Shown: positions 6,640-34,547, counted from the stretch's first letter. The stretch: 64,000 nucleotides of DNA from an uncultured Flavobacteriaceae bacterium (GCA_947488345.1 CANKZQ010000001.1:660518-724517); one strand, 5' to 3'. Notes: a model not told the origin generated them from the sequence alone. Numbers and translations are program-made.

Positions 6640-6653
6640 CGCGTCCATATCGA

Positions 6654-6741: not shown

Positions 6742-6742
6742 A

Positions 6743-12154: not shown

Positions 12155-12264
12155 ATTTAACGCACAAACTTAATTAAAAAATATGAGTGCTAGTAAAGAT
12201 ATATGTGCCAGTTTTAAACAAAAAAACAATTTAAAACGTATTTTTATCCTTTAAATATTCAATA

Positions 12265-12272
12265 CATTTGTT
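12265..12272 (+). promoter_or_regulatory. Bacteroidota housekeeping promoter -7 element upstream of ddl
   Basis: TACATTTG matches TAnnTTTG, 17 nt before the ddl ATG. Confidence 0.6.
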
Positions 12273-12289
12273 CATACCGAAGTAAAAAA

Positions 12290-13267
12290 ATGAAAAGAAC
12301 AATTGCCATTATTATGGGAGGGTACTCCTCGGAGGTTGAAATTTCACTGAAGAGTGGAAATGTGGTGTTTCAACACCTATCGGAAGAAATCTATAACGTA
12401 TACAAAGTTCATATTTTAAAAGAGAAATGGGTAGCTGTTATCGGCACAGACGAATACCCTATTAATAAGCATGATTTTTCTTTTACCCATAATGAAAATC
12501 ATATTACGTTTGACTGTGTTTTCAATGCTATACATGGGCACCCCGGTGAAGACGGTACGATCCTAGCCTACTTTGATCTTTTAGGTATAAAACATACTTC
12601 TGCTCCCTTTTATCAAATGGCATTGACTTTTAACAAGCGAGATACCTTAAGTGTTGTGAAAGAATATGGAATTAAGGCAGCCACGTCATTTTATCTTGAC
12701 AAAGGTGACTCTATTGATGCTGATGCAATTCTCGCAAAAGTAGGATTGCCTTGCTTTGTAAAACCGAACAATGCAGGCTCTAGCTTTGGAATTTCGAAGG
12801 TTACTGAAAAAGCAACGTTAACGGAGGCCATTGAGGTTGCTTTTGCCGAAGATCATGAAATTCTAATCGAGTCTTTCTTGGACGGCACTGAAGTATCAGT
12901 CGGTGTGATCGATTATAACGGACAAACAAAAGTACTACCGGCAACTGAAATCGTTTCAGAGAATGATTTCTTTGATTATGAAGCCAAGTATTTGGGGAAA
13001 TCTCAAGAGATTACACCCGCACGAATTTCACAAACACAACTACAAAACTTAAACGCTGTTGCTCAACAAGTATATGAAATTTTAAATTTGAGTGGATTTT
13101 CGAGAGCAGAATACATATTTATCGGTGACGAACCCTATTTCTTAGAAATAAATACAGTACCTGGTCTTACGAATGAAAGTTTGTTACCTCAACAAGCAAA
13201 AGCAGCGGGTATCAGCTTAGAAGATTTATTTAGCAACACCATAGGACAAGCATTAAAAACAAATTGA
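12290..13267 (+). CDS. ddl: D-alanine--D-alanine ligase
   Basis: GGYSSEVEISL, HGHPGEDG, VKPNNAGSSFG, FFDYEAKY, LEINTVPG. Confidence 0.96.
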   Translation: MKRTIAIIMGGYSSEVEISLKSGNVVFQHLSEEIYNVYKVHILKEKWVAVIGTDEYPINKHDFSFTHNENHITFDCVFNAIHGHPGEDGTILAYFDLLGIKHTSAPFYQMALTFNKRDTLSVVKEYGIKAATSFYLDKGDSIDADAILAKVGLPCFVKPNNAGSSFGISKVTEKATLTEAIEVAFAEDHEILIESFLDGTEVSVGVIDYNGQTKVLPATEIVSENDFFDYEAKYLGKSQEITPARISQTQLQNLNAVAQQVYEILNLSGFSRAEYIFIGDEPYFLEINTVPGLTNESLLPQQAKAAGISLEDLFSNTIGQALKTN

Positions 13268-13269
13268 GG

Positions 13270-13722
13270 ATGAGACGAGCAATATTTCCTGGATCCTTCG
13301 ATCCAATAACCTTAGGGCATTTCGATATCATTAAACGTGGTATTGATCTTTTTGATGAGATCATTGTTGCGATTGGTATCAACGCCGAAAAAAAATATAT
13401 GTTCAATTTAGAACAGCGTAAGGCCTTTATTGAAGAAGCTTTTAAAGATGAACCCAAGGTAAAAGTTGTAACTTATAAAGGGATGACTGTTGATTTTTGT
13501 AAAGAAATAGAAGCAAATTTCATTTTAAGAGGATTGCGAAATCCTGCAGATTTCGAATTCGAAAAAGCCATTGCCCATACCAATAGAAAGCTCACTAAAA
13601 TAGAAACGGTGTTTTTGCTAACGGCAGCCAGTACCTCCTTTATTTCTTCATCAATTGTGCGTGATGTGATTCGAAACAACGGTAATTTTAGCATTTTGGT
13701 ACCAGACAGCGTCAAAGTATAA
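13270..13722 (+). CDS. coaD: Phosphopantetheine adenylyltransferase
   Basis: FPGSFDPITLGH, RGLRNPADFEFE, ISSSIVRD. Confidence 0.97.
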   Translation: MRRAIFPGSFDPITLGHFDIIKRGIDLFDEIIVAIGINAEKKYMFNLEQRKAFIEEAFKDEPKVKVVTYKGMTVDFCKEIEANFILRGLRNPADFEFEKAIAHTNRKLTKIETVFLLTAASTSFISSSIVRDVIRNNGNFSILVPDSVKV

Positions 13723-13734
13723 GACGAGAACCTA

Positions 13735-15390
13735 TTACAATTTATATTCTGACAAGGCCTTTGTGAACTTTTCAGGATTTGCGGCTAAATGATACCTTGG
13801 ATCATCGATAGCCTCTACAATTACCTCTCTAAACTTTGGACTCGCTTTATACATCAATACCTTACAATCTTCACTAAGGTGCTTTAGTTTTACCGATTTC
13901 CCTTCGGCTTCATATTTATTAACCAGATTGAAAATAGCTTCTAGTGCAGAATGGTCGCTAATACGTGATTCAACAAAATCAATCTCTACCTGTTGAGGAT
14001 CATTTTTCACATCAAACTTTTCATTAAATGCGATGATTGATCCGAAAAATAAGGGGCCCCATATTTCATATACTTTCGTACCATCTTCGCGCATACGTTT
14101 GCGAGCACGGATACGCTTTGCATTCTCCCAAGAAAATACCAAGGCACTGATAATAACTCCGGCAATTACCGCAATGGCCAAATCAAAAATGACAGTCAAT
14201 GCAGAAACTGCAATTAAGACTATAACATCACTTAAGGGTATTTTATTTAAGATTCTAAAGCTGCTCCATGCGAACGTGCCAATGACCACCATGAACATGA
14301 CTCCAACTAATGCCGCAATCGGTACCTGTTCTATCAATCCTGAAGCAAACAAAATGAAGACGAGTAGTGCTAGTGCTGCAACAATACCTGATAGTCTACC
14401 ACGACCTCCTCCTTTTATGTTGATTAATGATTGTCCGATCATAGCACAACCACCCATCCCACCGAATAATCCGGTTATAATATTGGCACCACCCTGTGCC
14501 ATACATTCTCTATTTGAATTTCCGCGTGTTTCGGTAAGTTCATCAACTAAATTCAAGGTCATTAAAGATTCTATCAATCCAATAGCAGCCAAAATCAAGG
14601 CATACGGACCAATAAACCACAATGTTTTTAAACTAAAAGACACTTTGTTAAAAATATCAAACTGAAAACTCGGCAATCCACCTTTTAAGCCTTCTCCACC
14701 TCCATCACGGATAAAACTACCTACGGTTGAGACATCTAACTTTCCGAAAATTACGATAGCCGACACTACTAAAATAGCAATCAAGGCTTCTGGTAATTTC
14801 TTAGTTAATTTAGGTAAACCGAACATGATACCCATCGTCAAACCAACCAACCCTAACATCTGCCAAAACTTTCCATTGGCAAATAAAGCGCTAAACCAAT
14901 CACCTGTATTACTCCACAAAGAAATACCTTCCGGTGCTATTTGTGGAAACATATTCAATTGTGATAAAAAGATTACAATAGCCAACCCATTCACAAATCC
15001 CATCATCACCGGATGCGGAATCAAGCGCACAAATTTACCGAGCTTTAATACCCCGGCAAGCATCTGTATCACACCCATTAAAATAACTGTTGCGAACAAA
15101 TAATAGAGTCCGAGATTTTCTCCTTCCGCGCCAAGCGCATTCCCTTCAGCCACTAAAGAAACCATCACTACTGCTAAGGCCCCTGTGGCACCAGAGATCA
15201 TCCCTGGTCGACCTCCAAAAACCGAAGTAATTAAACCAATCATAAAGGCGGCATACAAACCAACTAAAGGGTCAACACCTGCCACAAAAGCAAATGCTAC
15301 AGCCTCTGGTACTAAGGCTAAGGCTACAGTCAAGCCTGATAAAATATCATTTTTAGCGTTCTTAGTACGTTTTCTTATAAATTCAGTCAT
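13735..15390 (-). CDS. SulP/SLC26 inorganic anion permease with short STAS domain
   Basis: DILSGLTVALALVPEAVAF, GGRPGMISGATG, GMGGCAMIGQS, GPLFFGS, DHSALEAI. Confidence 0.93.
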   Translation of the reverse strand: MTEFIRKRTKNAKNDILSGLTVALALVPEAVAFAFVAGVDPLVGLYAAFMIGLITSVFGGRPGMISGATGALAVVMVSLVAEGNALGAEGENLGLYYLFATVILMGVIQMLAGVLKLGKFVRLIPHPVMMGFVNGLAIVIFLSQLNMFPQIAPEGISLWSNTGDWFSALFANGKFWQMLGLVGLTMGIMFGLPKLTKKLPEALIAILVVSAIVIFGKLDVSTVGSFIRDGGGEGLKGGLPSFQFDIFNKVSFSLKTLWFIGPYALILAAIGLIESLMTLNLVDELTETRGNSNRECMAQGGANIITGLFGGMGGCAMIGQSLINIKGGGRGRLSGIVAALALLVFILFASGLIEQVPIAALVGVMFMVVIGTFAWSSFRILNKIPLSDVIVLIAVSALTVIFDLAIAVIAGVIISALVFSWENAKRIRARKRMREDGTKVYEIWGPLFFGSIIAFNEKFDVKNDPQQVEIDFVESRISDHSALEAIFNLVNKYEAEGKSVKLKHLSEDCKVLMYKASPKFREVIVEAIDDPRYHLAANPEKFTKALSEYKL

Positions 15391-23441: not shown

Positions 23442-23478
23442 AAAACCACTTTGCATGAACAAAGTGGTTTTTCTTTTT
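23442..23478 (+). terminator. Intrinsic terminator ending the rsfS-ftsH-...-yceI run; left boundary of the cassette array
   Basis: AAAACCACTTTG(23442-23453)/CAAAGTGGTTTT(23460-23471) plus T-rich tail. Confidence 0.85.
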
Positions 23479-23520
23479 AAAATAGTATCTTGCTAATATA
23501 TGGACATAGAGTTATTATTA

Positions 23521-23541
23521 ACCATAGCCCGTTCGTTAACC
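23521..23541 (+). repeat. attC-like element E0 (degenerate right-arm remnant)
   Basis: ACCATAGCCCGTTCGTTAACC; GTTCGTTAACC pairs 7/11 with CGATAGCTAAC at 24250-24260. Confidence 0.35.
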
Positions 23542-23563
23542 AAAATTAATTAAAACTAAAAAA

Positions 23564-24244
23564 ATGATTGAATATATAATTGAAAATAATTTGTATTTCA
23601 TATTACTAATCATTGTTGTGATTTTAGTTGTTGGATTTGTCTATATAAAGAATCTAAATAACGAAAAAGACAGAAAACTAGAGTTAGTTATAGGAATCAC
23701 AGCGGGCGTATCGATAATTATGGTGATGTATAATTTGATACTAAATACTCATTCTAACAATCGTATTGAAAAAAATAGAACAACACACAATACTTTAGAA
23801 AATATTCAAAGAAATTGGCTTTCTCCACAAGTTGATTTATCTCAGGCTTATCCTGAAGGGTTTTTTCTCTTTAAATCGTTAACTCCAGACGCCGATCATG
23901 GTGACTTTGAACCAACGTCTTATGACCCTGCCAAAAGAAATCAAATTGAAATAGCAAGTTCGATAAGAATATTCCAAGCGATGGAAGATTTTTTAACTCT
24001 TGGTTCTAATGACATTACTGGAAAAAGTATATGGATTAATAATTTTCTCATGTGGCTACAGTCACCTATTCTTAAAAAAAACTGGAAAGCACTTTCGTTT
24101 AATTATTCTAAAGACACCAGAGAAATGATTGACCGATTAATAAAAGAAAGTGATAAATTAGTTTTAATAAGACAGAAAAAAGGTAACCTAATGAAAAATG
24201 ATTATGACCATGTTTCTGAAAATTTTAAGGTTATTTTTCGCTAA
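23564..24244 (+). CDS. Hypothetical protein with two N-terminal TM helices (cassette 1)
   Basis: 226-aa ORF; no family recognised. Confidence 0.7.
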   Translation: MIEYIIENNLYFILLIIVVILVVGFVYIKNLNNEKDRKLELVIGITAGVSIIMVMYNLILNTHSNNRIEKNRTTHNTLENIQRNWLSPQVDLSQAYPEGFFLFKSLTPDADHGDFEPTSYDPAKRNQIEIASSIRIFQAMEDFLTLGSNDITGKSIWINNFLMWLQSPILKKNWKALSFNYSKDTREMIDRLIKESDKLVLIRQKKGNLMKNDYDHVSENFKVIFR

Positions 24245-24253
24245 TTGAACGAT

Positions 24254-24385
24254 AGCTAACAACATGTATAATTATTTGCTAATAGTGAATAAAGAGTGTC
24301 TCGAAAATTCTAACAGATTTCCTTACTCCTACGCTTTTTGTTATCTTAGTTGCTCATGTCACTAACCATGTACAAACCGTTACCA
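24254..24385 (+). repeat. attC-like element E1 (subfamily alpha)
   Basis: Left arm TAACAACATGTATAAT (24257); right arm CATGTACAAACCGTT (24367-24381); 80/107 identical to E8, ungapped. Confidence 0.8.
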
Positions 24386-24402
24386 CCAATTTGAATTCAA
24401 TA

Positions 24403-25386
24403 ATGAAAATCACAATTTTCGTAGTCGCCCTAATTCTATCACTAATTGTGAAATTATTAGTTGAAAAAAATAAGAAAAAATCGGATTCTATTAAAAAACG
24501 AATGGGAATCAAAGCTTTAGAGGCAAAATACGAAGAGGAGATTGGAGAAATAAAATCAAAAGAACAAATAGAAACCTTTTTTAAGCAATTTAATTTATCA
24601 GAACACTGGGAATCATTTGAGTCAAAAGTAAGGACTGAAATAAAAATAGATCCGTTTCAAAAAAACAATATTTCTTTAGGGAAATCAAAATTTGGCGGAC
24701 AACCAGATTTGCCAAAAAACATAGATTGGTTTAAAGAAAATAATGGAAAATCACTGTCTTTTATTGCTCAACTAAACTTGAGTGAAATCCAAATTCATGA
24801 TATTTCTCAAAGCTTACCTAAAACCGGTATTTTATATTTTTTTTATTCTTCAGAACAAGAAGCCTGGGGCTTTGATTATAAAGACAAAGATAAATTCAAA
24901 GTTTTTTACACTGAAGATGTAAATAATATTGAGCGAAAACCAATTCCTCAAGATTTAGTAGCATACAACATATATAAATCTTGCGAATTAAATTTTTCAA
25001 AATCATATAGTTTACCTAATTGGGAAAACGACTTTGTACTAGAACAATTAAGTAATTTTGAACAAGACATCTATGCCCTTTTAACTTACTCCGATATAAA
25101 CCATAAAATTCTTGGTTACTCAAACAATATACAAGGTGAAATGGAATTAGAATGTCAATTGGTGACAAATGGACTTTATTGTGGGGATCCTAGCGGATAC
25201 AATGACCCCAAAAGAAAAGAATTAGAGAAAGAAAAAACTGAATGGAAACTTCTATTGCAAGTCGACTCGGATGAAAGAGCAGAGATGATGTGGGGAGATT
25301 CTGGAACTCTATATTTCTGGATAAAACGAAAAGATTTAGAAAATTTAAATTTTGACAATGCTTGGTTTGCCTTGCAGTGTTATTAA
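24403..25386 (+). CDS. YwqG/DUF1963 family protein with N-terminal anchor (cassette 2)
   Basis: SKFGGQPDLP...W, LSFIAQLNLSE, GILYFFY, LLLQVDSD, MWGDSGTLYFWI...DL...NF...WF..QC. Confidence 0.9.
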   Translation: MKITIFVVALILSLIVKLLVEKNKKKSDSIKKRMGIKALEAKYEEEIGEIKSKEQIETFFKQFNLSEHWESFESKVRTEIKIDPFQKNNISLGKSKFGGQPDLPKNIDWFKENNGKSLSFIAQLNLSEIQIHDISQSLPKTGILYFFYSSEQEAWGFDYKDKDKFKVFYTEDVNNIERKPIPQDLVAYNIYKSCELNFSKSYSLPNWENDFVLEQLSNFEQDIYALLTYSDINHKILGYSNNIQGEMELECQLVTNGLYCGDPSGYNDPKRKELEKEKTEWKLLLQVDSDERAEMMWGDSGTLYFWIKRKDLENLNFDNAWFALQCY

Positions 25387-25395
25387 TAGAAAAAC

Positions 25396-25524
25396 TGGTG
25401 GTAACAACAGCTATAATTGCTTCGCTAGTTCGCATTGCTCGTGTCACTTGAATTAATTAACTTAGCTCAACGTCGGAAAATCTCATCTGATTTTCCGTAA
25501 ATGACCATTCACAAACCGTTAGCC
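25396..25524 (+). repeat. attC-like element E2 (subfamily beta)
   Basis: TGGTGGTAACAACAGCTATAAT ... CATTCACAAACCGTTAGCC; internal GGAAAAT/ATTTTCC stem; 33/37 identical to E6 core. Confidence 0.85.
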
Positions 25525-25549
25525 TTCATTATGACAAGACAACAAATTA

Positions 25550-26275
25550 ATGATTAAATTCTTTCGAAACATACGTCAAAACCTTCTCAATGAAGGAAAA
25601 ACAACCAAATACTTTAAATACGCCATAGGTGAAATTGTACTGGTAGTCATTGGTATTTTGATTGCATTGAGTATTAATAATTGGAATGAATCGCATAAAC
25701 AAAAGAAGGTTTTAAGTAACATTTATGGAATTGTAGCTGAAGACCTAAAGAAAGATTCTTTGGAAGTAGACATGGTGTTGAATTTCATGCTCGATAGAAA
25801 AAAGATATTTGAAAAAATTTTAAATGACTCGTTAAATTTAAAAGACGTCAAGGAAAATGGGATGATCCTCTCAATATTAACCGATGTCAGAGTATTAAAC
25901 ATTGAAAAGAGAGGTTATAATTTGCTACGTAATTTTGAAGATAACATGGTCAGTAAAAATGACTCTTTAGCCTTTAGAATTATCAATTTTTATGCAAGTT
26001 CTATTTTCTTTACTGAAAAAGTGGAAACAATAATTATCGATGATTTAATAAAAACCAATGATCTTTGGAAGAATCAGAAATGGTATACCAATATTATGCA
26101 AAATAAAAATGACGAAAGGTTTATTGACTATATGTTGACAAATCAAGAATTCAAAAATTTATGTGCTTTTCGGTATAGCATGTTTCATGAAAATTACGCA
26201 CCAACGATCGAGCAATATAAGCAAGGAAGCAAACGAATTTTGGAGGCGATAAAAACCAGACTCGACAAAAAATAA
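25550..26275 (+). CDS. DUF6090-family protein (cassette 3)
   Basis: MIKFFRNIRQNLL.EGK..KY.KYAIGEIVLVVIGILIALSINNWNE N-terminus. Confidence 0.85.
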   Translation: MIKFFRNIRQNLLNEGKTTKYFKYAIGEIVLVVIGILIALSINNWNESHKQKKVLSNIYGIVAEDLKKDSLEVDMVLNFMLDRKKIFEKILNDSLNLKDVKENGMILSILTDVRVLNIEKRGYNLLRNFEDNMVSKNDSLAFRIINFYASSIFFTEKVETIIIDDLIKTNDLWKNQKWYTNIMQNKNDERFIDYMLTNQEFKNLCAFRYSMFHENYAPTIEQYKQGSKRILEAIKTRLDKK

Positions 26276-26281
26276 TAAAAT

Positions 26282-26307
26282 AACGAAAGCCTAACAACGT
26301 GCATAAT
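26282..26307 (+). repeat. attC-like element E3 (left arm only)
   Basis: GCCTAACAACGTGCATAAT; next ATG only 19 nt later, right arm absent. Confidence 0.65.
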
Positions 26308-26326
26308 TAATTCTAAAAAATATAAT

Positions 26327-26761
26327 ATGGCAACAATCAATACTTATTTAAGCTTTATGGGTAACACTGAAGAAGCATTTGAATTTTATAAATCAGTATT
26401 TGGTGTTGAATTCGTTGGTGGCATAAGACGCTTTGGAGATATGCCAAATAATGAATTAATGTCGGACGCGGACAAGAGAAAAGTAATGCATGTCGGTTTA
26501 CCAATAGGACCTGGGAATTTCCTTATGGGAACAGATGCACTTGAATCTATGGGGCAATCGCTAACATTTGGAAATAATTTTCATATATCTATTAGTCCAG
26601 AGAGTAAAGAAGAAGCCATTAAACTATTCGATGGACTTTCATCAGGAGGAACGGTAACATCGCCACTAGAAGAGACTTTTTGGGGTGCGTACTTTGGGGC
26701 ATTTACAGATAAATTCGGAGTACAATGGATGGTAAATTATCTTCAACCAGTCAATAATTAA
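26327..26761 (+). CDS. VOC/PhnB-like glyoxalase-superfamily protein (cassette 4)
   Basis: YLSFMGNTEEAFEFYKSVFG, KVMHVGL, FWGAYFGAFTDKFGVQWMVN. Confidence 0.92.
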   Translation: MATINTYLSFMGNTEEAFEFYKSVFGVEFVGGIRRFGDMPNNELMSDADKRKVMHVGLPIGPGNFLMGTDALESMGQSLTFGNNFHISISPESKEEAIKLFDGLSSGGTVTSPLEETFWGAYFGAFTDKFGVQWMVNYLQPVNN

Positions 26762-26769
26762 AAAACGAA

Positions 26770-26934
26770 ACACAACAACGACTATAATCTTTTCACCAGT
26801 TCGCTGCGCTCGTGCTATTATTAAGGCCCCAAAGGGTTGGTGCACCAATGAACTATAAAAGTAAGAGAATATTTTACTCGTATTTTTTTGAAATACCATT
26901 GTAAAATACGAACTTGAGATATTAATAGCTGTAC
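26770..26934 (+). repeat. attC-like element E4 (beta-like start, degenerate right arm)
   Basis: ACACAACAACGACTATAAT; ACCAGTTCG...GCTCGT shared with E2/E6; ends GCTGTACGTAATTT. Confidence 0.6.
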
Positions 26935-26966
26935 GTAATTTAAAACTCTTAAAAAATGACTATTAA

Positions 26967-27443
26967 ATGAGGCGTTTAACTTTTATTTCATTATTTCTAA
27001 CCTTATCTATTTCTAACCTTTATTCTCAAGAGATTCAATTAAAAAAAACCTTTTTTGGTTACAAGTTTGTTCAAAATAATGAGACAATCAAAATGAATCA
27101 AGTATACAAAAGCATGAAACCAAATAATCAAGCTTATAAATTGATGAAAAAAGCTAAATCTAACAATACAATAAGCGGAATTATTGGTTTTGTAGGTGGA
27201 GGAATGATGGGATGGCCAATCGGACGAAGTTTCGCTGGCGAAAAATTTAATTGGACTTTATTCGGAATTGGAGCTGGGATCGCTGCTATCAGTATTCCTA
27301 TTTCTGGAAAATCAATAAAAGACACCAAAAAGGCTATTGATATTTATAATTCTTCATTAAACAAAACAACTCAAATTAATCATAATTTGCAATTGAAAAT
27401 CATTGCGAATAAAAATGGTATCGGACTATCTGTTAACTTTTAA
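26967..27443 (+). CDS. Hypothetical secreted/membrane protein (cassette 5)
   Basis: Signal peptide; glycine-rich hairpin GFVGGGMMGW...FGIGAGIAAI; C-terminal GLSVNF. Confidence 0.75.
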   Translation: MRRLTFISLFLTLSISNLYSQEIQLKKTFFGYKFVQNNETIKMNQVYKSMKPNNQAYKLMKKAKSNNTISGIIGFVGGGMMGWPIGRSFAGEKFNWTLFGIGAGIAAISIPISGKSIKDTKKAIDIYNSSLNKTTQINHNLQLKIIANKNGIGLSVNF

Positions 27444-27503
27444 AAACTACGTATAAAAACGACTATAATCGCTAAGAAGTAAACCATAACTCAGCCGCTG
27501 GTG
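27444..27503 (+). repeat. attC-like element E5 (internally shortened, both arms)
   Basis: TAAAAACGACTATAAT (27454) and CATAACTCAGCCGCT (27485-27499) only 15 nt apart. Confidence 0.6.
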
Positions 27504-27524
27504 GCAATTACAAAAAATAGAATT

Positions 27525-27965
27525 ATGATTCATCGTTTAAAATTCACCATTGACATCGATGCCGAAAAATCTAAGATCTGGAAAGCACTTTGGGACGAGA
27601 ACTCATATCGTTCATGGGCGAGTGTTTTTTTTGATGGGTCTTATGCAATATCTGATAATTGGAGAGAAGGCAGTAAAGTACATTTTCTTGGACCTGATCA
27701 GAGCGGAATCTATAGTTTAATCGAAAAGCACATTCCCAATGAATTTATTGAATTTAAACACATTGGAAACGTATTAGAAGGAAAGGAAAAACCGCTAGAC
27801 GAAGAAACGAAAAAATGGTCTGGAGCTACTGAAATATACAAGATTGTAAAAGGGGATGTTATGAATACGCTAAAGGTTGAAATTGATGTTATGAATGAAC
27901 ACCTGGAATTTATGACAAATAAATTTCCCAAGGCTCTTGAAAAAGTCAAAAACAACTGCCGCTAA
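27525..27965 (+). CDS. SRPBCC/AHSA1-like protein (cassette 6)
   Basis: IDAEKSKIWKALWD...Y..W...F..GS...SDNWREGSKVHFL; FPKALEKVK; stop codon lies inside left arm of E6. Confidence 0.8.
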   Translation: MIHRLKFTIDIDAEKSKIWKALWDENSYRSWASVFFDGSYAISDNWREGSKVHFLGPDQSGIYSLIEKHIPNEFIEFKHIGNVLEGKEKPLDEETKKWSGATEIYKIVKGDVMNTLKVEIDVMNEHLEFMTNKFPKALEKVKNNCR

Positions 27966-28115
27966 GAATCTTTATCATTAATTGCTACTGAATTCCCTCA
28001 CAGATCTTTCTAGCACCAGTTCGTATTGCTCGTTTCACTTATATTAATTAACTTCGTCGTACGCCCTAAAATCCCTAAGAATTTTCCGAAATTAACCATA
28101 TACAAACCGTTGACA
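27954..28115 (+). repeat. attC-like element E6 (subfamily beta)
   Basis: TAAGAATCTTTATCAT (27963) ... CATATACAAACCGTT (28097-28111); core matches E2. Confidence 0.8.
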
Positions 28116-28144
28116 ATAATTAAACCAGATAGATAAACTCAAAA

Positions 28145-28996
28145 ATGAATCGTGAAATAATCGACATACATGATTATACCATTTTATTGGAAGAAGCTTC
28201 TACTGATAACAAATTAATTGATTCATGTTTTTTTGACGAACCAGTCATAGCTATTGCCTTTTATGGTGCCGGTGATGTTGGTCTAAAAGTAAAGTTTGAC
28301 GAAAAAACGAAAGAATTCTATCATACCAAAGGCATGGTTTTATCTTTCTACGCTGATGATAAAGTCGAATTTGAGCATCAAGTCTCAAATTTAAAGCCTC
28401 TTCAATGTTTGGTGATTGCAACTACCGTTAAAAATATAGACAATTTACCAAGTGGTGAAAGCCAGTTTTTAGAAAAGTTTTTGCATCAATTAGTACACCC
28501 CAAAGATCATTATGTTGAAGGTCCGGTTTTTAATATGAGCCCAGAAATGTTTCTATTAGTTGAACAATTCTTTAACAATACGTTCGAAGGTGAACTTAAA
28601 ATGATGTTCTACAAAAGCCATATCACAGCGTTGCTTTCTCATTATTTTGGGCAATTGGCAACACAACAAAACACAAAACTTAATACTTCACAACTAGAAA
28701 AAATTAATCTAGCCCAAGAAATTTTAGTATCCGATTTAGAAAATCCACCTTCCCTAACAGAATTGGCCCACAGAATTGGTACCAACACCAATAAACTTAA
28801 AATAGAATTCAAAGCGCAGTTTGGTGTTCCTGTTTTCAAATACCTACAAAATGAACGTTTAAAAAAAGCTTACAATTTAATAAAGAACGAAGGAAAGACT
28901 ATTCAAGAAGCCGCTTGGACTGTGGGTTATGATAGTTTAGGTTCTTTCTCTAACGCTTTTGAAAAAAAGTTTGGTTATCGACCTAGCCAAGCATAA
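28145..28996 (+). CDS. AraC-family transcriptional regulator (cassette 7, gene 1)
   Basis: PPSLTELAHRIGTNTNKLKIEFKAQFG and AAWTVGYDSLGSFSNAFEKKFG double HTH. Confidence 0.93.
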   Translation: MNREIIDIHDYTILLEEASTDNKLIDSCFFDEPVIAIAFYGAGDVGLKVKFDEKTKEFYHTKGMVLSFYADDKVEFEHQVSNLKPLQCLVIATTVKNIDNLPSGESQFLEKFLHQLVHPKDHYVEGPVFNMSPEMFLLVEQFFNNTFEGELKMMFYKSHITALLSHYFGQLATQQNTKLNTSQLEKINLAQEILVSDLENPPSLTELAHRIGTNTNKLKIEFKAQFGVPVFKYLQNERLKKAYNLIKNEGKTIQEAAWTVGYDSLGSFSNAFEKKFGYRPSQA

Positions 28997-29062
28997 AATT
29001 CTTTTCGAATAAATCATAATTCTTTTTAAATAAGTCACTGGTTTAGAACCACAATAGATTTG
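28997..29062 (+). promoter_or_regulatory. Tandem 20-bp direct repeat with 21-bp period (putative AraC operator) and -7 element
   Basis: AATTCTTTTCGAATAAATCA (28997) / AATTCTTTTTAAATAAGTCA (29018), 17/20; TAGATTTG downstream. Confidence 0.65.
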
Positions 29063-29086
29063 TGTCATAATTAAAAAACAAAAATT

Positions 29087-29479
29087 ATGATTAGTAAAAA
29101 TTTATTTAGCATTCTATGCGCCATTTTAGTTTGGATTTTAGGAGTTGCCTTTTACCTCTTATCATTTTATATATCCATTTTAGAAAATCCTGATCTACAA
29201 TCTAATATTACACTCGCTTTGGGCATTATACCTAGCGCAGGTTTAGGAACTTATTTGTTTTATAGAAATAGCTATATAAAACCATCTTCATTGGCTCTTA
29301 CATTCGTAATAGTAGCTACTGTATTGGATATATTGATAACGGTTCCCGTATTTATAATTCCAAATGGTGGTAGTTATTCAAATTTTTTTGGTGATCCCAT
29401 GTTCTACACCATCATAGTTGAATTCTATTTTATTGTATTCTATTTTGGAAATCATTTAACCAAAAAAATGAAAGCATGA
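29087..29479 (+). CDS. DUF5367-like small membrane protein
   Basis: Four TM helices; LD..ITVP.FIIP.GGSY..FF motif. Confidence 0.7.
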   Translation: MISKNLFSILCAILVWILGVAFYLLSFYISILENPDLQSNITLALGIIPSAGLGTYLFYRNSYIKPSSLALTFVIVATVLDILITVPVFIIPNGGSYSNFFGDPMFYTIIVEFYFIVFYFGNHLTKKMKA

Positions 29480-29955
29480 AAACCTTCACTCTTTTTATCA
29501 CGGTTTTATTGAATGCACTTTCTACAGGCTTTTTTTTCGCCTGGTCAGTTTCGGTCATCTTAGGAACAAAAAGAATCAGTGATTTAACTTATCTAGAAAC
29601 GATGCAACATATCAATAAAGAAATCTTGAACCCTGCATTCTTCATCGTATTCTTTGGAAGCCTGATAACATTGATTATAACGACGTGTCTACAATTTAAC
29701 AACAAAGTTATGTTTTGGTTGGTCTTGGCATCCGCGATCATTTATCTCATTGGAACTTTTGGTATTACTGCCTTTAAGAATGTTCCTTTAAACAATGAGC
29801 TGGATATATTGAAAATTACAAAACTTAGTTTATCAGAGTTAAAGAATTTTAGAACCTATTATGAAAGTACTTGGAATCATTATCACAATATTAGAACTAT
29901 TTCAAGTATGATTTCATTCATCTTATTACTTATATCAATATTTATTAAAAAATAA
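29476..29955 (+). CDS. DUF1772 / anthrone-oxygenase-like membrane protein
   Basis: GFFFAWS, MQ.IN..ILNPAF, NVPLNNEL, WN..H..RT motifs. Confidence 0.85.
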   Translation: MKTFTLFITVLLNALSTGFFFAWSVSVILGTKRISDLTYLETMQHINKEILNPAFFIVFFGSLITLIITTCLQFNNKVMFWLVLASAIIYLIGTFGITAFKNVPLNNELDILKITKLSLSELKNFRTYYESTWNHYHNIRTISSMISFILLLISIFIKK

Positions 29956-29972
29956 TTTTAACACAATTCATT

Positions 29973-30809
29973 ATGAAAACGAACATTTTAGTTATCGGGG
30001 GAACCGGAAAAACCGGTCGTCGAGTAATAACACAATTACAAAATAAAGGAATCGAACCTAGAGTTGGTTCAAGACAAGGAACACCAAATTTCGATTGGAA
30101 CAACAAAGATACTTGGGTAAAAACGCTTCAGGGTATAGAAAAAATGTATGTTACCTATTATCCTGACTTGGCCGTTCCAGGTGCTAAGGAAGCCATACAG
30201 AGTTTAACTTATCTCGCCAAAGAATTAGGAGTTAAAAAAATGGTTTTGCTTTCAGGAAAAGGTGAAACCGAAGCAGAAGCTTGTGAAAAAATTGTGATGG
30301 ATTCTGGTATGAACTATACCATCGTTAGAGCTTCATGGTTTAACCAAAATTGGAGTGAAAGCTTCTTTTTAGAACCTATTCTATCTGGAGAAGTAGCACT
30401 ACCAATGTCTAATGTTTTAATCCCATTTGTGGATGCAAATGATATTGCTGAAGTTGCAGCGACTGTTTTACTAGACGATCGTTTCAATGGTGAAATTATT
30501 GAGGTAACCGGACCAGAACTAATCACTTTTAAAGATATTGTAAATATCATTTCAAAGACCAGTAAGAGAAATTTGAATTTTTACGATATTACACTAGAGC
30601 AGTATATCGATGGTATGAAAAAAATGCAAGTTCCTAATGACGTTGTTTGGTTAATTGAATATTTATTCAGTCATGTTTTAACAAATCCGAAAAATCAATT
30701 AGTCGCTCATGATATTGAACGAGTTTTGGGAAGAAAAGCAAAAACATTTTTAGAATATGCGCAAGAAACAGCCAAAACTAGTATTTGGAATCAGGTAAGC
30801 GTTACATAA
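29973..30809 (+). CDS. NmrA-family NAD(P)-binding protein
   Basis: ILVIGGTGKTGRRV, FDW, RASWFNQNWSE, FVDANDIA. Confidence 0.9.
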   Translation: MKTNILVIGGTGKTGRRVITQLQNKGIEPRVGSRQGTPNFDWNNKDTWVKTLQGIEKMYVTYYPDLAVPGAKEAIQSLTYLAKELGVKKMVLLSGKGETEAEACEKIVMDSGMNYTIVRASWFNQNWSESFFLEPILSGEVALPMSNVLIPFVDANDIAEVAATVLLDDRFNGEIIEVTGPELITFKDIVNIISKTSKRNLNFYDITLEQYIDGMKKMQVPNDVVWLIEYLFSHVLTNPKNQLVAHDIERVLGRKAKTFLEYAQETAKTSIWNQVSVT

Positions 30810-30941
30810 TTATTGCGAGCAGCGTACATAAGTAATAGCGATTTGAGTCTTGACTCAAGTCGCTATACTTTTATTTTGTAATTTACTTTCCGAAAAGTAG
30901 CCTATAAATACTCATTACTAATCATACACAACCCGTGAGCA
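30808..30941 (+). repeat. attC-like element E7 with strong internal hairpin
   Basis: GAGCAGCGTACATAAG (30817) ... CATACACAACCCGTG (30923-30937); 15-bp stem 30835-30866 with T-rich tail could also terminate the NmrA operon. Confidence 0.75.
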
Positions 30942-31051
30942 ACAAGCTAAAAATAAACCATCATTACATGAAAAACATGATCAATGTATCTTTCAAAAAA
31001 ATAGTTCCAATTATAGTCGGCATTTAAATTAATTAGTATATCAATATTTGG

Positions 31052-32185
31052 ATGAAAGAAGAAATAATAAAACTAAGGAGAGAACTTCATGCAAACCCTG
31101 AATTATCTTGTTTTGAACATGAAACAGCAAAAAGAATTCAAAGGTTTATAAAGAAACATAACCCGACTCACATCGTTGAAAATTTAGGAGGTACCGGGTT
31201 AGCCGCTATCTATAGGCTTCCAAATAAAGGCAAGTCTATAACAATCAGATGTGAATTAGATGCATTACCAATTCAAGAAGAAAATCAATTCGACCACAAA
31301 TCAAAAAAAAAGGGCATCTCACATAAATGCGGTCATGACGGTCATATGGCCATCGTTTCGGGGTTGATCTTTTGGCTGAAAAATCAATCGTTTAATGCCG
31401 GAGAAATTATATTATTATTTCAGCCAGCAGAAGAGAATGGAAAAGGCGCAAATCTTGTAATAAAAGACGAAAGGTTTAAAAATCTTAAAACCGATTTTGT
31501 ATTTGCCTTGCACAACATACCAAAAGAACCATTACATAATATTATTATAATGAAAAATGGGTTTTCGGCTGAAGTTCAGAGTTTTATAATAAGAGTAAAA
31601 GGAAAAAAATCACATGCCGCAGAACCTGAAAATGGGATAAATCCAGCACTCGCAATTTCTAAGATCATTTCAACCCTTTCAACATTAGAAGTAATCAAAC
31701 CCGAGGATAAAAATTTTACGTTAATAACACCTGTACATATCAATATGGGACAAATAGCCTATGGTATTTCTCCAGAAAATGCTGCTTTACACTATACGAT
31801 GAGAACATGGAATAGAGAAAGAGCTACGACCTTAAAAGCTCAAATAGAACTACTCGTTCAGAAGATATGTCAATTGCACAAACTAACATTCGAAATAGAG
31901 TGGCTTGAATATTTTCCTGCTGCTACTAATAATATTGAAAGCAATAATTATGTTTTAAAAGCTGCTAAAGAAAACAATTTCAAAATTACTGAAAGACCTT
32001 ACCCCTTTAAATTTGGTGAAGATTTTGGATGGTTTTCAAGAGAATATAAAACAGCCATGTTTGGATTAGGTGCAGGCATAAAAACTCCAGCTTTGCACAA
32101 TTCTGATTATGATTTTCCCGATGAAATAATTAAAACTGGAATTACAATGTTTACATCCATAATCTCAACTATCATGAATGAATAA
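31052..32185 (+). CDS. M20D-family amidohydrolase
   Basis: RRELHANPELS, RCELDALPI, HKCGHDGH, FQPAEE, GEDF, LHN. Confidence 0.92.
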   Translation: MKEEIIKLRRELHANPELSCFEHETAKRIQRFIKKHNPTHIVENLGGTGLAAIYRLPNKGKSITIRCELDALPIQEENQFDHKSKKKGISHKCGHDGHMAIVSGLIFWLKNQSFNAGEIILLFQPAEENGKGANLVIKDERFKNLKTDFVFALHNIPKEPLHNIIIMKNGFSAEVQSFIIRVKGKKSHAAEPENGINPALAISKIISTLSTLEVIKPEDKNFTLITPVHINMGQIAYGISPENAALHYTMRTWNRERATTLKAQIELLVQKICQLHKLTFEIEWLEYFPAATNNIESNNYVLKAAKENNFKITERPYPFKFGEDFGWFSREYKTAMFGLGAGIKTPALHNSDYDFPDEIIKTGITMFTSIISTIMNE

Positions 32186-32191
32186 TCAACA

Positions 32192-32325
32192 GAATAGCAT
32201 AGGGATTACAATTCATTGCTAAAAGCTTATAAAGAGTACTTCGCAAATCCTAACGAATTTTATAACTCCTGCCTTTTTTGTTATCTTAGATGCTTACTTA
32301 ACGAATCATAGACAAACTGTTAAGA
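32192..32325 (+). repeat. attC-like element E8 (subfamily alpha, left arm degenerate)
   Basis: 32216-32322 is 80/107 identical to E1 24276-24382; right arm CATAGACAAACTGTT. Confidence 0.8.
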
Positions 32326-32388
32326 TTCATTTTGGCAAATTGTCATTGAAATTAAGACTATACGTTTATACATACTGAAACTGGAATT

Positions 32389-32739
32389 ATGCTAGTCAAT
32401 ATCAATCCCAAATTACCCATGCGTGATAAAAATGTTACACGTGATTTTTATGTAGATAAGTTAGGGTTTAAAGAAATAGGAGATTACGAAGGTTACTTAA
32501 TGGTTCAAAAAGATAAAATAGAAATTCACTTCTTTGAATTTAAAGAACTTGATCCTAAAGAGAATTACGGACAAGTTTATATTCGTACTGACAATATTGA
32601 TGATTTTTACCAAGCATTATTAGTGAATAAAATTAGAATCCATCCTAACGGAAAATTAGAATCCAAACCTTGGGGGCAAAAAGAATTCTCGATACTTGAT
32701 CCTGATACAAATCTATTGACATTTGGTCAAAGTAATTAA
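32389..32739 (+). CDS. VOC/bleomycin-resistance-like protein
   Basis: PKLPMRD...DFY...LGF, IHFF, VYIRTDNID, KPWGQKEFSILDPDTNLLTFGQ. Confidence 0.9.
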   Translation: MLVNINPKLPMRDKNVTRDFYVDKLGFKEIGDYEGYLMVQKDKIEIHFFEFKELDPKENYGQVYIRTDNIDDFYQALLVNKIRIHPNGKLESKPWGQKEFSILDPDTNLLTFGQSN

Positions 32740-32740
32740 A

Positions 32741-32861
32741 AAACGACAACTAACAATTACCATGATTGATTCGTTCGCCATAATTGCAAACGCGAATGGT
32801 CCCCAACTAAATTTTTGTTAACTTAGTTATTTACGAATCTATCATATAACCACTCTTATAA
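32741..32861 (+). repeat. attC-like element E9 (degenerate)
   Basis: TAACAATTACCATGAT (32751); TTTTTGTTAACTTAGTT shared with alpha type; right arm CATATAACCACTCTT. Confidence 0.6.
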
Positions 32862-32874
32862 AATTATAATTCCT

Positions 32875-33381
32875 ATGAAAAACCTACTCCTTATCGCTTT
32901 TTTAAGTGCTTTTTGTCTTAGCTTAAACGCTCAAGAATTTGAAATTCCTGATACTATTGCGCTTAATAATGAGGCCGACTATAAAAAACATGAAACTAAT
33001 GTATTAAATGCTATCAACTGGGTACAGGCAACACCCATAGGTGAGCAAAAAAATAAACGAAAAGAAGTAAACGCCTTTCTCTTTAAATGGATGTCGGGAA
33101 GCCCAAACGTAACCATTGAATTATCGCAAGACCTAGTGCCATTTATGGACTGCTCTGATTGCCTGGTATCTTTTATGAATGGTTGGACTAAATTTAGTTT
33201 GGAAAATAATTACTCTAAAAATAAACTCGATTGTGCTCTTGCAGCAACAAATCATACTATAGAGTTTTACACAAAAAACAAAAATGAATTAGGAAAGATA
33301 GATTCCATTGAAAAACTATCTAAACGAAAAAGTAAGGGAAAATTAAAAGCCTACATCAAATCGAAATTACCTACAAAATGA
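32875..33381 (+). CDS. Hypothetical secreted protein
   Basis: Signal peptide (SLNAQ); helical 'RKEVNAFLFKWMSGSPNV' motif. Confidence 0.75.
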   Translation: MKNLLLIAFLSAFCLSLNAQEFEIPDTIALNNEADYKKHETNVLNAINWVQATPIGEQKNKRKEVNAFLFKWMSGSPNVTIELSQDLVPFMDCSDCLVSFMNGWTKFSLENNYSKNKLDCALAATNHTIEFYTKNKNELGKIDSIEKLSKRKSKGKLKAYIKSKLPTK

Positions 33382-33654
33382 CAATGCGCCAATCTCTATA
33401 ACTAGGGTTGATGAATTATTAAAAGATAGAATGTAACAAACGGAAAACCTTTTGCAATCTATTAATTGCTAACTATACCTAAGAAAAAATCGATAGTACT
33501 TAGTATAGGGTAAATTCCATACTAGTTCCGTTGAAGAAAGAAAGATTAATTGGACGGAACTGATTTGTATGAACATGTTCGAGTGTGATTTATAACTTAC
33601 AAAATCGTCTTAATTATACGTAGGCGATTACCTAGAAAAACCTTTAACGCTAAC
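33379..33654 (+). repeat. Degenerate intergenic element(s) with three hairpins ending in an attC-like right arm (E10)
   Basis: Stems at 33473/33499, 33518/33554, 33603/33621; CCTAGAAAAACCTTT (33631-33645) matches the right-arm consensus 12/15. Confidence 0.4.
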
Positions 33655-34278
33655 ATGACTTGTACACTTTGCAACTCCGAACTCATTCGTAAAAAGGATA
33701 CCTTATATTATGACTGTACTACCTGCAAAGCACTTATTAAAGACGCTGCGTATTACTTAACGGCCGAGAAAGAAAAAGCTAGATATGAAGCGCATAACAA
33801 CGATGTTAATGATCTTCGGTATCAAAATTTTGTCATGCCAATTACTGATTATGTCTTTGCGCACTTCTTACCTACTCACAAAGGATTAGATTTTGGAAGC
33901 GGCACCGGCCCAGTTGTTTCGAGTGTACTATCGAAAAAAAAATATGATATTCAGCAATATGATCCGTTCTTTGCTCCAGATAAACGTGTCTTGAACAACA
34001 GGTTTGATTATATTGTTAGTTGTGAAGTATTTGAGCATTTTCACAACCCCAATCAAGAAATTAATAGACTCGCATCTATACTAAAACCAAATGGAGCATT
34101 ACTGCTCATGACAATGCTTTATAACGACAAGATTGATTTCGACACTTGGCACTATCGTAAAGATCCGACACATGTCTTTATTTATAGAAAGGAAACCATC
34201 AATTTTATCGCAAAGACGAAGAACTTTGACGTAGAAATCTTAACAGATAGATTCATCACATTTAGAAAAAGAACGTAA
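33655..34278 (+). CDS. Class I SAM-dependent methyltransferase with N-terminal Zn-ribbon
   Basis: CxxC...CxxC; EKARYEAHNND; GLDFGSGTGP; YDPFF; CEVFEHF; WHYRKDPTH. Confidence 0.9.
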   Translation: MTCTLCNSELIRKKDTLYYDCTTCKALIKDAAYYLTAEKEKARYEAHNNDVNDLRYQNFVMPITDYVFAHFLPTHKGLDFGSGTGPVVSSVLSKKKYDIQQYDPFFAPDKRVLNNRFDYIVSCEVFEHFHNPNQEINRLASILKPNGALLLMTMLYNDKIDFDTWHYRKDPTHVFIYRKETINFIAKTKNFDVEILTDRFITFRKRT

Positions 34279-34364
34279 GGTAAATCTGGTATTGTACTAT
34301 TTTTATAGTACACGCTAAAATGAATTATAACGTAAAAAGACTCGCTACTTTTATAAGCTCCTAG

Positions 34365-34547
34365 AGAATACGAACTTTAAGTGCCGCTGATTTAGAACAG
34401 ATACGAATTGAAAGAACAGAAGTCAGGCAAAGTAAAAAATTAGGCAACTACCTCAATAGAATTGCTTATCATATATCTGTTCATACGGGTCAGATGCTTA
34501 GCTATTTTAGAATAGTGAATATCGAACGCCCACAAATTTCGGAGTAA
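34365..34547 (+). pseudogene. DinB-family remnant (C-terminal ~60 codons)
   Basis: Frame reads RIRTLSAADLEQIRIERTEVRQSKKLGNYLNRIAYHISVHTGQMLSYFRIVNIERPQISE*; in-frame TAG at 34362, no start codon. Confidence 0.65.

Follow-up and report, generated by a model that had tools for sequence, protein, structure and literature searches.

The closest described counterparts of the array considered here are the sedentary chromosomal integrons, such as the Vibrio superintegron with its attC sites (VCR) of about 120-130 nt. They consist of co-oriented, mostly promoterless ORFs, each followed by a long hairpin. The sites are homogeneous within a lineage, have the box order R''-L''...L'-R' with AAC and GTT cores, are hybrids of two cassettes when they stand in an array, and fold better on the bottom strand. 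The cargo is diverse, including immunity proteins and a restriction-modification system, and the content varies between strains. All these features recur in the flavobacterial arrays described below. A hairpin of one DNA strand is also used in the integration of CTX-phi by XerCD, that is, by a Xer recombinase without the IntI domain. However, there a single phage attachment site recombines with dif, and there are neither cassette arrays nor hybrid sites.

Groups of at least two same-strand attC sites with no integrase nearby are known as CALIN and may originate by insertion in trans or by loss of the integrase (2016, PMC4889954). In archaeal and 'inverted integrase' integrons, attI lies directly downstream of the integrase gene and the array follows in line (Ghaly et al. 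2022, PMC9668308); their integrases are reported to retain the IntI-specific additional domain (PMC9668308). This domain, situated near patch III, is the integrase criterion that PMC9668308 takes from Messier & Roy (2001), and integron integrases are recognized by the intI_Cterm criterion in PMC4889954.

We consider about 10 kb of a marine Flavobacteriaceae chromosome with approximately ten gene cassettes, at 23.5-33.4 kb of the window (the whole 64-kb stretch that was analysed). It is quite probable that these cassettes form an orphan array, devoid of a recombinase, and that they belong to an integron-like system widespread in marine Flavobacteriaceae; this assessment covers also the catalyst and the history proposed below. 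No description of such a flavobacterial system was found in the searchable literature. Every long ORF between the intrinsic terminator of yceI (23442-23471, + strand), which marks the left edge of the variable region, and the MFS gene is on the + strand, as a first-pass annotation of this DNA had stated. The DNA homology to relatives ends at 23414 on the left and restarts at 33650 on the right (right edge 33650-34278, + strand). The methyltransferase gene (33655-34278), listed in the first-pass annotation as cargo, shares this homology and is a conserved flank, not a cassette. Thus the array ends near 33.4 kb, about 1 kb before the previously assigned end at 34547. The nearest relatives, with flanking proteins 81-98% identical, have none of the cassettes of the window, and what they carry between yceI and the methyltransferase/MFS genes is wholly different. 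In the more distant relatives L071 and L007, yceI adjoins valS. This comparison, suggested in the first-pass annotation, supports the locus being a hot spot of gain and loss.

The site family was described by a covariance model, R1, trained on 60 metagenome sites with the window sequence excluded. It has 258 matches in 100 metagenome contigs (465 kb), forming same-strand arrays, the longest with 15 (L141), 10 (L150) and 8 (L116) sites. Other Flavobacteriaceae DNA (1.4 Mb) yields a single match, at the same locus of a relative, L001. The sites are 107-136 nt long, typically about 123-125 nt, and all have a single orientation. The TAAC, AAC and GTT columns are invariant across the 60 sites. The layout is of the attC type, R''-spacer-L''...L'-spacer-R'. 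R'' (...NNNNNN-T-AAC), a 3-nt spacer and L'' (GTGTAT) lead to a variable tip, which contains one small hairpin or two; L' (ATACAC), a 5-nt spacer and R' (GTT-R-NNNNNN...) follow. This is the classical order, and not a different arrangement of arms as had been suggested. The L box with its extension is 92% paired, exceeding each of 500 shuffles and every slid control, and three stem pairs have compensatory changes (GC 40, AU 15, CG 3; AU 29, UA 14; CG 43, GC 8, UA 3). The L helix has no conserved bulge in this family, whereas integron sites have extrahelical bases in the L box that set the choice of strand. No Rfam family matches the sites at the gathering score.

Folding predictions favor the bottom strand over the top one: it is the more stable of the two in 166 of the 182 array-form sites and in 83 of the 84 reconstituted ones. 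Strand asymmetry here has two sources: the conserved top-strand mismatches are all A.C and become G.T wobbles on the bottom strand, and the unequal spacers of 3 and 5 nt leave two bases bulged out between the R and L boxes of the bottom-strand fold, a possible counterpart of the extrahelical bases of integrons. The bottom strand, folded in single-stranded form, is the likely substrate. One alternative is that these are Xer/dif-type (pdif) modules, where a housekeeping-like Xer acts on short double-stranded dif-like sites and the hairpin is incidental. Indeed, the recombinase linked to such arrays elsewhere (see below) is at the same distance from XerA/XerD as from IntI. On the other hand, the sites are 107-136 nt long and co-oriented, with compensatory stem changes and strong folding asymmetry between strands, and they have neither the 11-6-11 dif-like architecture (28 bp) nor alternating orientation. 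Flanks that are complementary across a cassette, described next, are a prediction of recombination between folded sites, and pdif modules are a very unlikely explanation.

Neighboring sites are complementary across the enclosed genes: the bases that follow GTT in one site pair with those preceding AAC in the next. At least six of seven bases pair in 69 of 85 neighboring site pairs, and all seven in 43, compared to means of 2.3/7 within a site and 2.5/7 in random pairs. The pairing is 96-100% at positions 1-6, with a conserved A opposite C at position 8 and renewed pairing at positions 9-11. The cassette-specific stem has 3+6-7 bp, a conserved mismatch and 2-3 bp, whereas the R stem of integrons has about 4 bp. 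This cross-cassette pairing is the trace that units excised and inserted as circles leave behind, and it supports the outer stem of a site being a hybrid of neighboring cassettes. The first-pass annotation had proposed such attC-like hybrids from the window alone, and the complementarity proves to be far above the controls. Moreover, in two pairs of strains the recombinase genes are 100% identical at the DNA level. L186 and L187 diverge immediately after ...CCTACGTTG|, and L192 and L193 immediately after ...ACACACGTTGTA|, that is, cassettes have been replaced at GTT at the strain level. The data contain neither a recombination event nor a circle nor a clean joint of excision; the metagenome contigs matching the locus are too fragmentary.

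In the window itself, R1 finds five sites, all on the + strand and within 24.2-32.3 kb; the rest of the 64 kb contains no further site and nothing else at E<4. Four further partial sites were recognized from the arm motif alone. The left arm TAACAACRNNYATAAT is exact at 24257, 25402 and 26292 and has one mismatch at 26773 and 27454, all on the + strand, with no other match at one mismatch or fewer in the 64 kb. The right arm CATNNACAAACCGTT is exact at 24367, 25506 and 28097, with one mismatch at 32307 and two at 30923. These positions agree with the first-pass annotation; a left arm at 32751 and weaker right arms at 26916, 32843 and 33631, also listed there, are not detected by R1. Whole intergenic elements are repeated as well: 24267/32207 (116 nt, 74% identity) and 25427/28018 (105 nt, 73%).

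All sites and ORFs of the array listed here are on the + strand, and pairing of cassette ends was counted over the seven bases beyond the GTT/AAC triplet. The first site, S0 (23503-23537), is a short hairpin remnant with the right arm AACCATAGCC-CGTTC-GTT, its GTT occupying 23535-23537. This site is the orthologue of the entry site in the relative L001 (GGATATAG...CTATATCC-CTCC-GTT) and is presumed to be the attI-like entry point of the array. Cassette 1 encodes a 226-aa membrane protein of no firm family (23564-24244), and its ends (23538/24251) are unpaired, with 3/7 matches, the chance level. Site A (24249-24389; R1 65.9 bits, E 8e-11) is a full attC-like site with TAAC at 24257, GTT at 24379-24381 and a weakened L box (ATGTAT/ATGTAC). 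Cassette 2 (24391-25386), encoding a DUF1963 (YwqG-like) protein, is the best preserved one of the window: its ends, GTTACCACCA and TGGTGGTAAC, pair 7/7 beyond the core (24382/25396, P=0.005 against random site pairs). Site B (25394-25528; 51.7 bits, E 5e-8) is also full, with TAAC at 25402 and GTT at 25518-25520, but its L boxes (AGCTAT/ATTCAC) no longer pair. Cassette 3 (25550-26275) encodes DUF6090, the commonest recurring cargo family in arrays elsewhere, and its ends pair 5/7 (25521/26286, P=0.09).

The following three sites are incomplete. Site C (26292-26315), missed by R1, is truncated to the left arm, TAAC AAC GTGCAT AATTAATT. Site D (26773-26830), missed too, has the left arm with one mismatch and an internal block common to sites B and F, but no right arm. 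Site E (27454-27499) is short and degenerate, TAAAAAC...CCATAACTCAGCCGCT. Between them lie cassette 4 with a VOC/glyoxalase-fold protein (26327-26761) and cassette 5 with a 158-aa protein of no family (26967-27443). Cassette 6 encodes a 154-aa protein (27501-27965) with a weak AHSA1/SRPBCC hint (E 0.04), and its stop codon falls within R'' of site F. The downstream flank of site E and the left flank of site F (27500/27957) pair 5/7 (P=0.09), or 7/7 with G.T counted. Site F (27955-28116; 37.6 bits, E 3e-5) has full length, a degenerate left arm (TAAG) and GTT at 28109-28111.

The next cassette (28145-30809) contains four genes, encoding an AraC-type regulator, DUF5367, an anthrone-oxygenase-like membrane protein and an NmrA-like reductase, with no sites between them and 5/7 pairing of the ends (28112/30811, P=0.09). 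Site G (30809-30942; 28.8 bits, E 1.5e-3) is degenerate (R'' AGC, R' GTG) and encloses a terminator-like hairpin at 30835-30866. It is followed by a gene for an M20 peptidase/amidohydrolase (31052-32185) and by site H (32187-32329; 26.2 bits, E 5e-3; GTT at 32319-32321), which belongs to the subtype of site A (74% identity over 116 nt) and has a degenerate left arm. A second VOC/glyoxalase-fold protein (32389-32739), site I (32751-32857) and a 168-aa protein of no family (32875-33381) complete the variable region. Site I, with TAAC and the TTGTTAACTTAG block, has no valid right arm, is missed by R1 and is a doubtful remnant. Pairing is at the chance level in both 30938/32189 (1/7) and 32322/32745 (3/7), although the latter pair had been reported as complementary in the first-pass annotation. 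For the seven pairs of cassette ends together, 29 of 49 positions match versus about 17 expected, whereas both ends of one site match at approximately 2/7, the chance level. Cargo assignments made in the first-pass annotation hold for the two VOC, the YwqG-like and the DUF6090 proteins; no match to DinB was found.

The sites of the window score 26-66 bits, compared to 80-120 bits for the best sites of the family, and about 27% of the modelled pairs are broken in them, versus 8% across the family. The array is partly decayed, several sites having been stripped of arms or stem pairing after insertion, and it may be inactive. Folded singly, these sites form weak structures (-5 to -17 kcal/mol). 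This, together with the terminator-like hairpin in site G, could be taken to mean that they are immobile intergenic repeats (REP/MITE-like, terminators or RNA motifs) in an island assembled otherwise. However, such repeats leave unexplained the pairing of flanks across genes but not within sites, the divergence of strain pairs from GTT onward, and the constant position of arrays downstream of one recombinase. This possibility is hardly credible.

No tyrosine recombinase was found in the 64-kb window by Pfam (40 ORFs) or by phmmer with IntI1 (all ORFs of at least 80 aa), in agreement with the first-pass annotation, which postulated a recombinase encoded elsewhere. A likely candidate exists. In all eight other flavobacterial loci examined, picked for lying on long contigs, a conserved 376-aa Xer/IntI-like tyrosine recombinase is encoded directly upstream of an array of the same family. 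One of them, L156:1501-2631, alone resembles IntI1 among the 3472 ORFs of an initial set of loci; its homologues are 66-88% identical and occur in at least ten named genera. In L186, L187, L188, L191, L192, L193 and L194, same-strand sites begin downstream of the homologue, past the first ORF, and none lies upstream of the gene. The gene is co-oriented with the array. Its stop codon is followed by a short hairpin, the entry site, and a conserved gene encoding a zinc-ribbon protein of about 127 aa lies upstream in the divergent orientation.

The 376-aa protein lacks about 42 residues opposite IntI1 residues ~199-258, where IntI1 has its specific insertion. Its TIGR02249 score is 197 bits, below the cutoff of 265, with the match split into two stretches; the match to VchIntIA (2a3v) is likewise split in two. 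A structure model has no extra helix at the position of the insertion. There is also an additional N-terminal alpha/beta domain of about 110 aa. The protein is not IntI by the intI_Cterm criterion of PMC4889954.

These data bear on another alternative, that the array is a remnant of a canonical integron, a strict CALIN with ordinary attC sites, the true IntI, with its additional domain, being encoded elsewhere in the genome and the 376-aa recombinase being a mere neighbor. The sites do have the integron core (TAAC...GTTR), box order and cassette logic. The best R1 match on plasmid R100, although non-significant, is the real aadA1 attC, aligned through CTAACAA...GTTA. CALINs occur commonly, and there are reports of integrons from Bacteroidota (PMC8618304, PMC9024848). 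On the other hand, IntegronFinder 2.0 records for Bacteroidetes nothing but In0 elements and a single complete integron, that of Salinibacter (PMC9024848). In all loci collected, no IntI-like ORF occurs other than the 376-aa protein, which is linked to the array in each of the eight loci, with the entry site at its stop codon, and which has the gap and the low TIGR02249 score described above. A canonical remnant is unlikely.

The preferred reading, an orphan array of a flavobacterial integron-like system, is close to CALIN, as at least five same-strand sites occur with no tyrosine recombinase within 64 kb, and the CALIN rule covers the array provided that its sites count as attC. The options for its origin are the same. 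However, CALINs are defined via the IntegronFinder attC model and IntI (PMC4889954), whereas the likely cognate recombinase here is not IntI by the criterion of that paper. As with archaeal and 'inverted integrase' integrons, the system was found outside Proteobacteria by genome and metagenome mining, and the entry site is placed similarly; the recombinase gene, absent from the window, adjoins the array and is co-oriented with it in other genomes. Unlike theirs, the flavobacterial recombinase has no additional domain. The same distinguishes it from the recombinases of sedentary integrons, together with the N-terminal domain, the co-orientation with cassettes, the short hairpin entry site and the zinc-ribbon partner gene. 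The distinction from classical integrons suggested in the first-pass annotation is supported by the longer cassette-specific stem and by the recombinase.

We suggest the following mechanism. Each cassette ends in a site of about 123 nt folding as an imperfect hairpin. Recombination would occur at the invariant GTT/AAC core, so that each array site combines a left flank belonging to its own cassette with a right flank belonging to the following one. After excision as a circle, these two flanks of a cassette would meet in a stem of about 13 bp. The 376-aa Xer/XerA/IntI-like recombinase is the likely catalyst. The cassettes of the window were probably inserted in trans at the hairpin site downstream of yceI. 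As an additional function, the hairpins may have a role as RNA.

The intergenic regions of the array consist of repeated sequence, and all long ORFs from the yceI terminator (23442-23471) to the MFS gene are on the plus strand. The left arm TAACAACRNNYATAAT has five copies and the right arm CATNNACAAACCGTT four, with at most one mismatch, all on the plus strand within 24.2-32.4 kb; at this threshold neither arm occurs in the rest of the 64-kb window. Whole intergenic elements of 116 and 105 nt repeat at 73-74% identity. No Rfam family matched the window at the gathering score, and exact-sequence queries with its YceI and MFS proteins found no record. The array is framed by core genes: ftsH, cdsA, psd, the gene of an acyl-CoA-binding protein and yceI on the left, and a methyltransferase gene, the MFS transporter gene and valS on the right.

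A YceI scan of one genome per species produced 77 loci. In the two closest relatives (loci L001 and L002) the flanking proteins are 81-98% identical to those of the window, but neither locus has any of the ten variable ORFs found there. In the more distant L071 (Aureibaculum) and L007, yceI immediately adjoins valS. Thus the same genes in a fixed order, which would have spoken against the mobility proposed in the first-pass annotation, were not found; the variable content differs between yceI and the methyltransferase gene. The latter had been counted as cargo, with the array drawn to 34547. However, DNA homology to the relatives ends at 23414 and starts again at 33650, so that the methyltransferase gene belongs to the flank and the array ends at about 33.4 kb. 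In L001 the orthologous short hairpin site still follows yceI, and behind it come a single cassette, different from those of the window, and one full site. In L002 the hot spot is occupied by a single 1248-aa ORF on the minus strand (10725-14471) and no sites, and the methyltransferase gene has shrunk to a remnant of about 95 nt (14703-14797).

Metagenome contigs were scanned with an exact pattern using both arms. This yielded 105 stretches, about seven of them expected by chance, as estimated from the number of specified bases. These matches preserve the consensus far better than the window copies. Its 5' part is NNNNNN-TAAC-AAC-GTGTAT-AATTAATTGC, followed by one or two small internal hairpins, and its 3' part is GCAACTAACC-ATACAC-AAACC-GTT-R-NNNNNN-AATT. 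This is the layout of an attC site: R'', spacer, L'', tip, L', spacer, R'. Aligning 60 distinct sites shows 92% pairing in the L box plus extension, with clear compensatory changes: GTGTAT/ATACAC is replaced by GTATAT/ATATAC or GGCTAT/ATAGCC, and TTGC/GCAA by AGGC/GCCT. The site structure outscores 500 of 500 shuffles and all slid controls.

A covariance model, R1, was built from the 60 sites with the window sequence left out. In the window it finds five sites (E from 8e-11 to 5e-3), all on the plus strand and inside the array. In 100 metagenome contigs it finds 258 sites, forming same-strand arrays of up to 15, and in 1.4 Mb of other Flavobacteriaceae loci the L001 site alone. About 27% of the modelled pairs are broken in the five detectable window sites, compared to 8% in the family, and four sites (26292, 26773, 27454, 32751) are arm-only or short remnants. 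The weak, non-terminal folds of individual window sites had at first suggested that these are not hairpin sites; the family alignment overturned this, and the window copies appear to be decayed forms of well-paired sites. Part of their low R1 scores could come from divergence of their subtype from the model. No tyrosine recombinase is encoded in the window, in line with the first-pass annotation, which had seen no integrase near the array. We read the array as an orphan that is by now decaying and whose cassettes were probably inserted in trans at the hairpin site 3' of yceI. The stop codon of the window ORF ending at 27965 lies within R'' of site F. Inspection of the sites by eye for Bacteroidetes-type and sigma-70 promoters revealed no convincing -33/-7 pair, and a sigma-70 scan gave 55 candidates, not above the 59.8 expected from shuffles.

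The conserved mismatches of the top strand are all A.C and thus become G.T wobbles on the bottom strand. Folding with DNA parameters makes the bottom strand the more stable one in 166 of 182 array-form sites and in 83 of 84 reconstituted sites. The predicted folding parallels the bottom-strand rule of integrons. However, the asymmetry is provided here by wobbles and unequal spacers, whereas in integrons it is provided by bulged L-box bases.

The seven bases following GTT of each site were compared with the seven bases preceding AAC of the next one. Among 85 adjacent pairs, 43 match at 7/7 and 26 at 6/7; the low-scoring pairs probably contain an undetected site in between. The mean is 2.3/7 for the two flanks of a single site and 2.5/7 for random pairs. 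Thus the complementarity across genes, noticed initially in the window, exceeds the controls in the family, with 69 of 85 pairs at 6/7 or better. Pairing amounts to 96-100% at positions 1-6 and resumes at positions 9-11; at position 8 there is a conserved A opposite C. Because of this per-position pairing, a stem of about 13 bp is predicted for the circular form, 6-7 bp of it cassette-specific, in agreement with the stem length originally estimated. In the window itself the claim holds in part: the ends of the DUF1963 cassette, the second in the array, match at 7/7 (P=0.005) and three others at 5/7, but the remaining ones only at 3/7, 1/7 and 3/7. The flanks of single window sites match at about 2/7. 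Such a pattern would be expected to arise only by site-specific recombination at the GTT/AAC core via a circular or hybrid intermediate. The predicted junction of an excised circular DUF1963 cassette would join ...CAAACCG to TTACCACCA. A search for excision joints at the locus in four metagenome runs yielded only fragmentary contigs of low depth and joints that looked chimeric.

When 918 ORFs of the metagenome loci were clustered all against all, no recurrent integrase emerged; the top families were cargo, e.g. DUF6090. A phmmer search with IntI1 of plasmid R100 against a set of 3472 ORFs from the loci compared gave a single match, L156:1501-2631. The stop codon of this recombinase overlaps TAAC of a 67-nt entry site (L156:2629-2695), the TAA of TAACAAC being the stop. 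The first cassette follows directly, with matching ends (GTTAGCTAC / GTAGCTAAC); a full site separates it from an HTH-Dcm-restriction-enzyme cassette, behind which lie a site, a SUKH-family cassette and another site. The recombinase family (376 aa, 66-88% identity) occurs in at least ten named genera and bears the generic NCBI label "site-specific tyrosine recombinase/integron integrase". Same-strand sites also follow the recombinase gene in all of the seven further loci that include downstream sequence; their sources are two Aestuariivivens marinum strains, Aestuariibaculum sp. YM273, Sabulilitoribacter, two Xanthomarina strains and a Winogradskyella MAG.

The entry sites (L156:2629-2695; L186/L187:11132-11198; L192/L193:11132-11182) are short hairpins whose stem differs among genera with complementarity kept, followed by ...AC(A/G)(C/T)GTT. 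In two strain pairs with 100% identical recombinase DNA, the sequences become unrelated directly after ...ACGTTG and ...ACGTTGTA of the entry site. In each of the seven further loci a divergent gene upstream of the recombinase encodes a protein of about 127 aa with a CxxC...CxxxC motif. The motif is invariant and the gene always divergently adjacent, e.g. L156:1023-1415(-), L186:9524-9913(-) and L188:9537-9911(-). This protein has no Pfam family, shows 77% mean column identity over seven genera and is likely an accessory or regulatory partner of the recombinase.

Integrons are defined by IntI including its additional domain, regarded as a requirement for recombining folded attC sites. The recombinase is 29% identical to IntI1 and lacks about 42 residues exactly at the IntI-specific insertion. 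It scores 197 bits, in two stretches, against the integron integrase model TIGR02249 (cutoff 265) and passes the generic XerA/integron integrase model NF040815 (238 bits, cutoff 220). Archaeal XerA and VchIntIA are equally close to it in sequence and fold, and both are nearer than XerD. The structural model predicts an extra N-terminal alpha/beta domain of about 75 residues. Under the criterion set by Cury et al. (PMC4889954), and under the definition that PMC9668308 repeats, the recombinase is not an IntI.

Reviews name Bacteroidota among integron-bearing phyla (PMC8618304), and IntegronFinder 2.0 reported only In0 elements and one complete integron (Salinibacter) in Bacteroidetes (PMC9024848). 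Searches of open-access full text found no description of a cassette system in Flavobacteriaceae or of the 376-aa recombinase family; being limited to such text, they do not prove absence. It is possible, with the odds in our view slightly against, that these loci form a second lineage of integron-type gene-capture platforms, one not recognised so far and spread across marine Flavobacteriaceae genera and some of their phages. Such platforms would rely on a Xer/XerA-like tyrosine recombinase that lacks the IntI domain, together with a zinc-ribbon partner and a hairpin entry site, and strand choice at their sites of about 123 nt would be encoded by G.T wobbles. Either the integron principle would have been invented independently here, or the lineage would be a near-ancestral form of it; the window would hold one orphan array. 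If so, the IntI additional domain is not the sole route to hairpin-site recombination, and the platforms provide a comparison point for the origin of integrons from Xer-like ancestors. A large marine Bacteroidota cassette pool, part of it on phages, would escape IntI-keyed tools, with its restriction-modification systems, immunity proteins and detoxification enzymes. R1 and the 376-aa recombinase are ready annotation markers for such arrays.

One cassette contains the complete HTH-Dcm-restriction-enzyme unit, and immunity proteins of the CdiI, WapI, SUKH/SMI1 and DMP19 types are also encoded in the recombinase-linked arrays; this conflict and defence cargo lies at L156:3609-5954, L187:14878-15339, L188:14600-15064, and L156:2711-3337 and 6142-6771. 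Such cargo has been reported in chromosomal integrons as well. The most recurrent cargo is DUF6090, found in the window (25550-26275), L133, L165, L167, L175, L178 (three copies) and L186 (two copies). Metagenome depth over 25206-25656, covering site B and the start of the DUF6090 gene, is 113-196, compared to about 3-10 elsewhere, and reflects many related copies elsewhere. Between sites F and G the window has one unit (28145-30809) of four co-directional genes, encoding an AraC regulator, DUF5367, an anthrone-oxygenase-like membrane protein and an NmrA-like reductase; two gene starts overlap or abut. This is either a multi-gene cassette or several cassettes fused upon loss of the intervening sites.

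Phage-like contigs from metagenomes (L122, L144, L172) and IMG/VR (L189, L190) have one to three sites each of an AT-rich subtype, TAACAACGTATATAATTTATAGGC...GCCTACAAAATCATATACAAACCGTT, together with genes for Erf, exonuclease VIII and endolysin. Such cassettes or sites seem to be present on phages of these hosts. The platform, in turn, may be located within or next to integrative islands. A tRNA-like 3' fragment upstream of the L156 platform (approximately 900-975) was recognized only by eye and ARAGORN calls no tRNA there, so a tRNA at this position was rejected. A tRNA-Met gene lies upstream of the platform in L186 (9189-9263), and 1.4 kb upstream of the platform of the Winogradskyella MAG there is a gene for another tyrosine recombinase, not of the same type (L194:7299-8585; 428 aa, Phage_int_SAM_5).
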